DNA of 64,000 nt from Savitreella phatthalungensis (lineage: Eukaryota). Below the pieces are notes generated by a model. That model saw nothing but the letters and a program-made list of their open reading frames with translations. It was not told where the DNA came from and did not search any database. Every line of letters begins with the position of its first letter. Positions within the stretch are counted from its first letter, which is position 1. Made by a program: the position numbers and the translations under genes. The stretch lies in assembly GCA_051599415.1 (NCBI GenBank), contig AP039712.1, forward strand, positions 62,001-126,000. The letters run 5' to 3'. Below, piece after piece: positions 11,524-13,028 of this stretch.

Positions 11524-11824
11524 ATGGGCGCTGTCGCATCGTGTCTGACGACCATTGTTAATGCCATCGGCTCATTCTTCAGTACGTCTTAGCACTCATT
11601 CAGGTTTCGGACAAGTCGAATACTGACAAATCTTCTCTAGTGGCGATCATCCATGGAATCGGTGCAGTATTGAGTGCTCTTGTCCGCGGCATCGTTGCCA
11701 TCTTTGACGCCATCATCAATGTAAGAGGAGCGCACCTTCCTTGTCAAGACTCGATCACGTGCTGACCAATACCTAGTGCATCTGCTGTGGCAGAGGCGGC
11801 GGGAGAAGAAGTCGAGTCCGGTAG
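11524..11824 (+). CDS. Small hydrophobic Cys-containing protein, copy A, 61 aa; exons 11524-11581, 11641-11720, 11777-11824
   Basis: Canonical introns GTACGT..ACTGAC..TAG and GTAAGA..GCTGAC..TAG give MGAVASCLTTIVNAIGSFFMAIIHGIGAVLSALVRGIVAIFDAIINCICCGRGGGRRSRVR*. Confidence 0.85.
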
Positions 11825-12126
11825 CCCTGAAACCGCGAGCATGAAGCGCTGGTCAACTGTCCACGCATAGGGAACCCCTACGCTGCCATCGATCGACAAC
11901 ATGGCCATAGCATGTTGGCATACTTAATCTATTTTCATGCTTTCATCATGGTCAAGAGGTTCGCGCCGATCGTTCTGCAAATGACTTACACAATCATGCG
12001 TTTTTCAAAGGCCGGCGTCAGCGCTGTTTGCGTTTCTAGACCATCAGCCAATGTGTAGATAAAGATGTCCCATCCTCGAGAGCTGTGTCAATCGTTCTAG
12101 ACTTATTGCAATCTTGGTTCATCGGA

Positions 12127-12425
12127 ATGGGCGCGATTATATCGATTCCAGCTATTATCGTGAACTCGATTGCCTCGATGATTCGTAAGCACTTAATCAC
12201 GCAAGGTATACATGGCTGTGGGCTGACTTGATTCACTAATCGGAATCGTCAACGGTATCACTGCTGTCGCTCTATCCATCTGGAACGACACTCTCTCGTG
12301 TTGCACTTACATCTTCATGGTAAGTTGGAAACCCTGAGCTCGATCCACTAAGTCAAGCTAACGCGGACAACAAGTGCGGCAATACTGACGATGGCTTCAG
12401 GCCAGGGTTGTGTTGCAGATGCTAG
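12127..12425 (+). CDS. Small hydrophobic Cys-containing protein, copy B, about 62 aa (intron 1 has no AG acceptor; may be a pseudogene); exons 12127-12184, about 12240-12319, 12375-12425
   Basis: Same exon sizes as copy A (58 and 80 nt) and same phases. Translation MGAIISIPAIIVNSIASMILGIVNGITAVALSIWNDTLSCCTYIFMCGNTDDGFRPGLCCRC*. Donors GTAAGC and GTAAGT, branch points GCTGAC and GCTAAC. Confidence 0.65.
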
Positions 12426-12662
12426 ACACAATGTGGAATCAACGCGGCAATTCCCAAGTAAGTTGCTCGACCGAACATATCATAAACGAACGTCCTCTGT
12501 CATGAGCAAACTGTGTCGTGCAGCCGTCAATCTTCGTATCTCGTCAAGAATCAACCATTTTGCAAAACACATCCTCGATCATCGTCACCTCAGTGCAAAC
12601 CGACGTCATCGACCCTCGAATACAAATACCTGTCACTTGCTCTTCATCGCAAAGCTATCATC

Positions 12663-13028
12663 ATGGGTTGTGTCATCTCCATTGCACTTTGTGTTTGTGC
12701 GGTTGCCGGTGCCGCCATTGGTAAGTGGGCTCCGCAGCCGTCACGATTGTCGCTGGACTGACACAAGACGTCTAGCCGCTGTCGGAGCACTCATTGCCGG
12801 TATCGTCGCCGGTCTCGTCGCTCTTGGGAAAGCGCTCACCAACGTAAGTCAGCCCCTGAGCATACCACAAGCGCAAACTCCGCATGCATCTTTCAAAGTG
12901 GATAAAGGACTGACTTGTATGTAAAGTGCTTCGGAAACAAGCGAGCGGACCGACAGCAGCGCAAACAGATGAAAGAGAATTGCAATGTACAGAGCAGTAC
13001 AGTCTTATCCGCGTCTGCACAAGGCTAG
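12663..13028 (+). CDS. Small hydrophobic Cys-containing protein, copy C, 75 aa; exons 12663-12720, 12776-12843, 12927-13028
   Basis: Introns GTAAGT..ACTGAC..TAG and GTAAGT..ACTGAC..AAG give MGCVISIALCVCAVAGAAIAAVGALIAGIVAGLVALGKALTNCFGNKRADRQQRKQMKENCNVQSSTVLSASAQG*. Confidence 0.8.

Follow-up and report, generated by a model that had tools for sequence, protein, structure and literature searches.

A tandem triad of small three-exon genes related to an uncharacterised fungal protein family, with a proposed acylated helix

We analysed a 64,000-nucleotide stretch of Savitreella phatthalungensis DNA (contig AP039712.1), called the window below. Between positions 11524 and 13028 of its forward strand lie three small co-oriented genes, here named copies A, B and C. 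Judged by profile scores and gene structure, copy A is a plain member of an uncharacterised fungal protein family and copies B and C are diverged relatives; the three are best read as paralogues from an old local tandem duplication of one family member. For the family proteins we propose, at a probability of roughly 55%, an in-plane amphipathic helix on the cytosolic face of a membrane, with acyl chains at both ends. We are far surer of the paralogy and of the membership in the family than of this topology.

Three related genes in tandem

Copy A comprises exons 11524-11581, 11641-11720 and 11777-11824 (58, 80 and 48 nt, stop included), separated by introns 11582-11640 (59 nt, phase 1) and 11721-11776 (56 nt, phase 0), both GT..AG; spliced by coordinates, it encodes 61 aa. 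Copy B has exons 12127-12184, 12240-12319 and 12375-12425 (58, 80 and 51 nt) and two 55-nt introns read from the sequence, intron 1 (12185-12239) in phase 1 and intron 2 in phase 0; its product would have 62 aa if intron 1 were removed. Copy C comprises exons 12663-12720, 12776-12843 and 12927-13028 (58, 68 and 102 nt), with introns 12721-12775 (55 nt, phase 1) and 12844-12926 (83 nt, phase 0), again both GT..AG, and gives 75 aa on splicing by coordinates. The start codons are 603 nt (A to B) and 536 nt (B to C) apart. All six introns begin with GT, and in the five ending in AG a branch-like CTGAC or CTAAC lies 15-25 nt ahead of the 3' end. Such short GT..AG introns and branch-like sites, with housekeeping neighbours, give the window a filamentous-fungal look.

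A preliminary description of this locus had proposed a shared plan of a 58-nt first coding exon, a phase-1 first intron, a phase-0 second intron and TGC as first codon of exon 3. We reproduced each of these features in A, B and C. The products (claimed as 61, ~62 and 75 aa; obtained as 61, 62 and 75 by splicing by coordinates) all start M-G-x-(V/I)-x-S as described, and the three C-terminal tails read exactly as given there. Four overlapping long open reading frames at the triad (177 aa on the plus strand, 117 aa on the minus strand, and two shorter) lacked Pfam matches and were taken as chance frames; that A, B and C are themselves chance frames is excluded by their homologues. An Rfam scan of 10500-13400 gave no match.

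Kinship among the three products was measured by local alignment against shuffled sequences. Scores stood at z=7.1 for A-B and z=7.2 for A-C, reached by none of 2000 shuffles in either case, and at z=5.3 for B-C, reached by one of 2000. At the DNA level the sole similarity among the copies is the start context CATC..ATGGG; introns and flanks are unalignable, and the duplications are therefore old. We then scored each product against a family profile built from 29 clean database members, with the window sequences excluded, using 900 composition-matched shuffles as control. Copy A scored 82.9 bits over positions 1-59, copy B 23.6 bits over positions 1-47 without a gap, and copy C, the most diverged of the three, 17.2 bits along its entire length with a single 4-residue gap; the shuffle maximum was 10.1 bits. 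Since B and C exceed all 900 shuffles and share the unusual intron positions of A, they appear to be diverged local duplicates. Single exons were far less telling in a six-frame profile search of the window: copy B exon 2 reached 10.8 bits (third-best match in the window), copy B exon 1 6.7 and the copy C exons 4.1-4.3, with noise up to 6.2 bits. The shared exon-intron plan is the best tie of B and C to A.

No further copy was found in the window, where the six-frame profile search gave only noise elsewhere (at most 6.2 bits), and the best off-locus tblastn match among those listed had an E value of 0.084. The closest database relatives of copy A are P0002-P0004, at 83-84 bits; among 273 stored family proteins there were no closer relatives of B or C. 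These results bear out the proposal of three related copies with a common gene structure, by shuffle tests, profile scores and intron positions alike, and also the suggestion that copy A resembles an uncharacterised small fungal family. The homology search on the spliced peptides turned up neither a well-characterised family nor unrelated origins for the three.

Copy B lacks a canonical acceptor

The earlier account gave all three genes a three-exon model, glossing over a defect in copy B. The last two bases of its intron 1, 12238..12239 (plus strand), are AA (...CACTAA) where AG is expected, and by eye we found no AG from about 12207 to 12322. With intron 1 retained, the frame meets a stop after 34 codons. 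Copy B is therefore not canonically spliceable and needs a non-canonical acceptor. It is probably either disabled or dependent on such a splice, and may be a recent pseudogene.

An uncharacterised fungal family

The family was recovered from a read-through translation of copy A exon 2, which led to one database protein and from there to six more. Searched against 1.84 billion protein representatives, a profile of these seven sequences matched 193 at E<=1e-3, of which 55 passed the stricter E<=1e-10. A 31-member profile, run against a 5.8-billion collection, matched 381 clusters at E<=1e-3 among 3490 candidates. The proteins are ~60-85 aa long. They occur across Pezizomycotina (Aspergillus, Trichophyton, Paracoccidioides, Colletotrichum, Xylariales, Pseudogymnoascus, Tuber and Pyronema), in the early-branching yeast Lipomyces and in Basidiomycota (Tilletia, Rhodosporidiobolus and Collybiopsis); P154DRAFT_518848 of Amniculicola lignicola and PAAG_04565 of Paracoccidioides lutzii are examples.

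Databases say little about them. For all 120 matches listed, the precomputed Pfam field is empty, and the names, where one is given, are hypothetical, uncharacterised or unnamed with three exceptions: P0168, a bare gene-model identifier, and two evident mislabels, P0241 ("phage-related protein") and the 69-aa P0269 ("Major facilitator superfamily domain"). None of 31 members scored above a curated Pfam cut-off, the best match being DUF5316, below cut-off at E 5e-4 in 6 of the 31. Four members gave no NCBIfam match, and a sequence-profile search of the PDB returned nothing significant (best E 0.093, a designed ice-binding helix). ESM Atlas returned "hypothetical protein" clusters only, with Ascomycota the commonest phylum. 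A literature search on the locus tags of seven members, the N-terminal and Cys-pair motifs and fungal acylated microproteins found no paper; supplementary tables were outside that search, and an acylated-protein proteomic list among them could hold a family member.

Copy number and intron positions in relatives

Relatives' DNA was fetched with patterns drawn from eight closer sequences, and 62 unique metagenomic loci gave a test at the DNA level. A canonical family copy was present in 80 of 80 fetched loci, and two copies in one of them only. In that locus (L016), positions 1600-3100 make up an almost perfect palindrome, its centre near 2330 and a family gene on each arm, and the second copy is probably an assembly artefact. 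The family is thus normally single copy per locus, with the proviso that diverged paralogues of the B or C kind are hard to detect by exon. Tandem copies are therefore not the rule in these loci.

Most loci, 46 of 61, have an intron after codon 7. One locus (L079, 1190-1600) has an intron inside codon 32 and another (L029, 3990-4300) has one inside codon 46, two bases from the position of window intron 2. The two introns of copy A lie at codon 19/20 and behind codon 46. None of the 62 unique loci had an intron at codon 19/20, the site of window intron 1; weighing against a lineage-specific position, the stretch of codons 12-20 is covered by one of the two search patterns, which under-samples genes with an intron there. 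The "conserved gene structure" claimed at the outset thus holds inside the triad and fails among relatives, where a single intron after codon 7 prevails. The introns common to A, B and C are older than the duplication and look lineage-specific, and the triad is a lineage-specific expansion. Within one tiny gene family, intron positions have been mobile: after codon 7, in 20, in 32, in 46 and after 46.

Some close relatives of copy A from Logan/ENA assemblies are continuous where the window has introns. P0002-P0004 and P0057 are unbroken across codon 19/20, and P0002-P0004 also across 46/47; each of the four carries or enters a variable insert at about codon 30. P0006-P0008 are uninterrupted at 19/20 and extend into intron sequence past codon 46. 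P0086 starts at a GTG just inside copy A exon 2 and reads into intron 2, like a prokaryote-style ORF call made on genomic DNA. These close relatives of A may be intron-less genes or have a quite different set of introns; alternatively, some of the records may derive from transcripts.

Conserved anatomy of the family proteins

Conservation was measured in 144 of the 273 stored proteins, selected for an MG start, a length of 55-86 aa and the Cys motif. Ser6 is present in 143 and Cys7 in 138 of this set, which was picked for its MG start. In the unique loci, exon 1 reads M-G-(A/V)-(V/I)-x-S-C in 61 of 62. An independent check is offered by the loci with an intron after codon 7, where exon 1 lies outside the search pattern: all 46 of 46 keep the M-G-x-x-x-S-C start. 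It is difficult to see a start this nearly invariant as anything but a signal, the simplest candidate being one for N-myristoylation and S-acylation, and the earlier suggestion of an N-myristoylation-type start gains support accordingly from these loci, as a putative signal. Gly2 with Ser6 is the preferred context of N-myristoyltransferase.

Residues 9-52 form four stacked 11-residue repeats. Within a repeat, positions 1 and 5 are polar, positions 2, 6, 8 and 9 small, and positions 3 and 7 Ile, with position 7 the best conserved; positions 1, 5, 9, 2, 6 and 8 draw on Gln/Thr/Asp, Arg/Asn/Ser and Gly/Ala/Ser/Thr, and there are 2-3 charges per 40 residues. Hydropathy power peaks at 3.65 residues per turn. 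Gly-x-Gly occurs in each repeat, so that the middle is not unique. At the helix end stands a Cys pair, of which the second Cys (family position 50) is found in 144 of 144, followed by a Gly/Arg tail. The last residue is Val or Ile in 127 of 144 and the third from last Ser or Thr in 119 of 144; at the DNA level, S-x-V/I ends 48 of the 60 proteins in loci where the stop was reached.

AlphaFold2, run on the 144-sequence alignment, drew a single helix over residues 2-51 and a disordered tail (mean pLDDT 77, rising to 93-95 over residues 21-40). The hairpin shape raised in the preliminary description is disfavoured by this predicted continuous helix.

Two readings of the protein ends were rejected. 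Prenylated pheromone-like precursors do not fit, as there is no Cys-aliphatic-aliphatic-X box at the end of A, B or C. A 14-3-3 "mode III" reading of the family C-terminus is a loose fit: the conserved Ser is third from the end, and a PDZ-ligand-like S/T-x-hydrophobic end fits equally well. The section of PMC4760375 that defines mode III places the phosphorylated residue at the penultimate position.

How the three copies differ

Copy A has the full M-G-(A/V)-(V/I)-x-S-C start, a clear four-fold repeat stack and a hydrophobic moment of 0.44 (taken at 98.2 degrees over 44 residues, where A and four family members span 0.38-0.48). Three Cys (47, 49 and 50) stand at its helix end, as Cys-Ile-Cys-Cys against the family's Cys-Leu-Thr-Cys, and precede a Gly/Arg tail. 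It ends in S-R-V-R, one Arg past the family S-x-V; its relatives P0002 and P0004 end in S-R-V.

Copy B keeps Gly2 and Ser6 and has Ile at position 7, with Cys7 gone. It retains the first two to three repeats (moment 0.24), has lost the family Cys50 and the basic tail, and ends in C-R-C. Copy C likewise keeps Gly2 and Ser6 with Ile at position 7, and has Cys at 3, 10 and 12. A 4-residue deletion falls within its repeats and its moment is 0.07; the stretch is Gly/Ala-rich and evenly hydrophobic, the tail is mixed Lys/Arg/Gln and the end is A-Q-G. Of the Cys pair, only the first member survives in B and C, encoded by the opening codon of exon 3. The C-terminal S-x-(V/I) is absent from the ends of all three copies.

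Helical periodicity, asserted for all three products in the first description, was found in A and B (3.65-3.70 residues); in C it was confined to side-chain size, at 3.60. The best 19-residue insertion energy was +1.0 to +2.3 for A, B and family members and -1.5 for C, the sole negative value, on a scale that makes these figures approximate. Copy C thus looks more like a true transmembrane segment. All three products fit a permissive N-myristoylation pattern: Gly2, then a small uncharged residue, with position 6 occupied by Ser/Thr/Ala/Gly/Cys/Asn and position 7 by anything but Pro. Conservation of the start throughout the family argues more strongly than this pattern.

A membrane model and its alternatives

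From the conservation, the periodicity and the predicted single helix we infer a model of lipid modification, topology and function. The initiator Met would be removed and Gly2 N-myristoylated, the invariant Ser6 fitting the preference of the enzyme, and Cys7, adjacent to the myristoylated start, would be S-acylated. Residues about 8-51 would form one long helix of four 11-residue repeats at 3.67 residues per turn, with a face of bulky Ile/Val/Leu/Phe opposed to one of Gly/Ala/Ser/Thr/Asn with few charges. Where the helix ends, the Cys cluster (47, 49 and 50 in A) would also be S-acylated, and the Arg-rich tail would bind acidic lipids. The helix would then lie in the cytosolic leaflet, stapled at both ends, where it may work as a wedge, sense lipid-packing defects or organise domains. 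The C-terminal S-x-V/I of most family members would remain free for a partner or a sorting step.

Several observations count against this model. The 40-residue core has a mean Kyte-Doolittle hydropathy of 1.4-1.8, and its best 19-residue windows, at 2.0-2.7, exceed the classical transmembrane threshold. Three of the 25 top covarying pairs (13-42, 14-43 and 14-40) fall on one antiparallel register, a weak signal at an effective sequence number of 52, and would fit a hairpin or an antiparallel dimer. AlphaFold2 is prone to render any such sequence as one helix, and its pTM here was 0.43. Copy A, moreover, lacks the exact family C-terminus, and B and C lack most hallmarks, so traits of the family may not transfer to the triad. 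The same hydropathy maxima and covarying register (centred near residue 28) speak for the main rival, a hairpin of re-entrant or two-pass form with its turn at the central Asn-Gly-Ile-Gly and its acylated ends cytosolic, similar to hairpin proteins of lipid droplets or of the caveolin type, or for an oligomeric bundle with the small/polar stripe inside. Cys at both ends of the hydrophobic stretch would suit these shapes too, as would the conserved stripes of Gly and Asn, typical helix-packing residues. We nonetheless consider them somewhat unlikely. The predicted helix is unbroken and most confident exactly at the supposed turn, the 11-residue repeat runs uninterrupted through the centre with its Gly-x-Gly in every repeat, the 19-mer insertion energies of A and the family are positive on the approximate scale, and the first arm would have just about 16 residues.

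Two further alternatives concern what the copies do. B and C could be functionless remnants of old duplications, now in decay, leaving only A at work. The missing acceptor of B points this way, as do the loss from both of Cys7, the invariant family Cys50 and the C-terminal S-x-V/I, their single exons at or near noise against the family profile, and the want of closer relatives among the 273 stored proteins. Yet C, in spite of unalignable flanks and introns, keeps the CATC-ATG-GG start context of A, a GTAAGT donor, a CTGAC branch site and an AG acceptor for each of its two introns, and three open exons; we estimate a probability of about 0.03 that 75 codons would be free of stops by chance. B, for its part, is one acceptor base short of an intact gene. 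We judge it improbable that both are relics. Instead of residing on the cytosolic face, the products could be peptides that are secreted without a leader or attack membranes (toxins or recognition factors), an idea suggested by small size, an amphipathic helix and local diversification into three tails, and by weak bacteriocin-like and modulin profile similarity (one of 31 members each, E 0.04-0.5, all below cut-off). This we regard as very unlikely: the start does not resemble a signal peptide; the invariant Gly2, Ser6 and Cys7 and the Arg-rich tail fit cytosolic acylation and inner-leaflet binding; the family is single copy and strongly conserved across Ascomycota and Basidiomycota, unlike fast-evolving toxins; and the neighbours are housekeeping genes with no metabolite or toxin cluster.

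The acyl-stapled, in-plane helix thus remains our preferred model. A bolder version would make the family an unrecognised class of membrane proteins in which an acyl-stapled 11/3 helix, with the tail and S-x-V/I as a switch for sorting or partner binding, organises domains or curvature; we hold this to be doubtful. Were it nevertheless right, the triad would be a natural experiment, comprising one amphipathic protein, one Gly/Ala-zipper transmembrane protein and one just switched off.

If the model is true, the family would be a new type among lipid-anchored membrane shapers and sensors, and the predicted design is simple enough for direct test in model fungi. First seven residues and a Cys pair near-unchanged across two phyla, in proteins with no Pfam family or informative name, usually mark an overlooked basic part of cell biology. 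There is also a lesson for annotation: three-exon genes of 60-75 codons escape ORF-based views.

Genomic surroundings

An ERCC4-domain gene of Rad1/XPF type (13346..16096, plus strand; a 916-aa open frame with a Pfam ERCC4 score of 84.8 bits) starts 318 nt past the copy C stop on the same strand. That distance is very short room for both the 3' end of C and the Rad1 promoter. In 12 of 80 metagenomic loci an ERCC4 relative also lies directly downstream of the family gene, and there the two genes always converge; among unique loci with 3 kb or more of downstream sequence, the figure is 5 of 22. Linked loci include L032, L043, L045, L046, L059, L062 and L069, and several come from unrelated metagenomic fungi. 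The gene being convergent in relatives and co-oriented in the window implies a local inversion. The triad thus seems to sit at the ancestral site of the family gene, with one inversion since.

Four other neighbours were tested and found near the family gene in 0 of 80 loci. Flanking the triad are an Arg5,6-like fusion with amino-acid kinase, semialdehyde dehydrogenase and NAT domains (5258-7795, minus strand), a HisG ATP phosphoribosyltransferase (8755-9705, plus), a PHP-domain protein (16120-17115, minus) and a Sel1-repeat protein (17856-20456, plus). These neighbours are of housekeeping type, and we saw no signs of a secondary-metabolite or toxin cluster among them. A run of Cys codons at about 19250-19420 (minus strand), opposite the Sel1-repeat frame, was met only in chance tblastn matches; it suggests a trinucleotide repeat.

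Comparison with known systems

Each part of the proposed design is of a familiar kind, be it the dual acyl anchor, the ALPS-like helix or the polybasic tail. In the literature searched we found no description of their combination in a free-standing protein of ~65 residues from Ascomycota and Basidiomycota.

The family profile also matches nine long proteins (449-1015 aa), in 3-7 stretches each; they include P0089, P0112, P0117, P0140, P0143, P0150 and P0153, and two of four long proteins scanned passed the tape-measure model TIGR01760. Phage tail tape measure proteins share with the family an 11-residue beat of Ile/Val/Asn/Gly. They differ in size and domain context, and have no common start, Cys pair or tail. 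Descent from them was rejected: the similarity is one of periodicity only, the family proteins are 60-85 aa, and the four members scanned had no NCBIfam match. The "phage-related protein" label of P0241 is probably due to the 11-residue repeat.

Yeast Pmp3/Pmp1 proteolipids and reovirus FAST proteins are likewise small, with a hydrophobic helix and a basic cluster. They span the bilayer, a difference from our model, and 0 of 31 family members scored above any Pfam cut-off. FAST proteins have their myristate outside the cell. Fatty acylation and a lipid-packing-sensing helix are reported for FAST proteins (PMC4464655), as in the model for the family.

At the N-terminus the family resembles SH4-type anchors (yeast Ego1/Meh1 and Vac8, human LAMTOR1 and Src-family kinases), which share Gly2, a small uncharged residue next, Ser6 and a nearby Cys; the comparison covers the first seven residues only. 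The start of Ego1 is presumably nearly identical to that of the family. SH4-type anchors carry large soluble scaffolds or enzymes, whereas the rest of a family protein is a 40-residue hydrophobic helix with a second Cys cluster. N-terminal myristoylation and palmitoylation tether Ego1 and LAMTOR1 to vacuole/lysosome membranes, according to the relevant passage of PMC5618229.

In the helix it resembles ALPS motifs and other 11-residue-repeat helices (perilipins, alpha-synuclein and apolipoproteins), which share the 3.67 periodicity, a bulky hydrophobic face and a polar face of Gly/Ser/Thr/Asn with few charges. ALPS motifs are defined, in the portion of PMC8700311 that deals with them, by amphipathic helices with Gly/Ser/Thr polar faces and few charges that insert into loosely packed membranes. 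The family helix differs in being far more hydrophobic and far more conserved in sequence than these helices, which have just a pattern in common, in its flanking presumptive acylation sites and in belonging to no larger protein. Helices of this type are unfolded in solution and attach reversibly to curved or loosely packed membranes, and the high hydropathy of the family core argues for permanent rather than reversible binding. The resemblance is one of kind, not of descent.

The nearest comparison remains the unnamed fungal family itself. Copy A matches it over its full length, with the M-G-A-V-x-S-C start, the four repeats, the Cys cluster, the Gly/Arg tail and the ERCC4 linkage in common. 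The window locus differs in having three copies in place of one, and introns at codon 19/20 and after codon 46 in place of one after codon 7.

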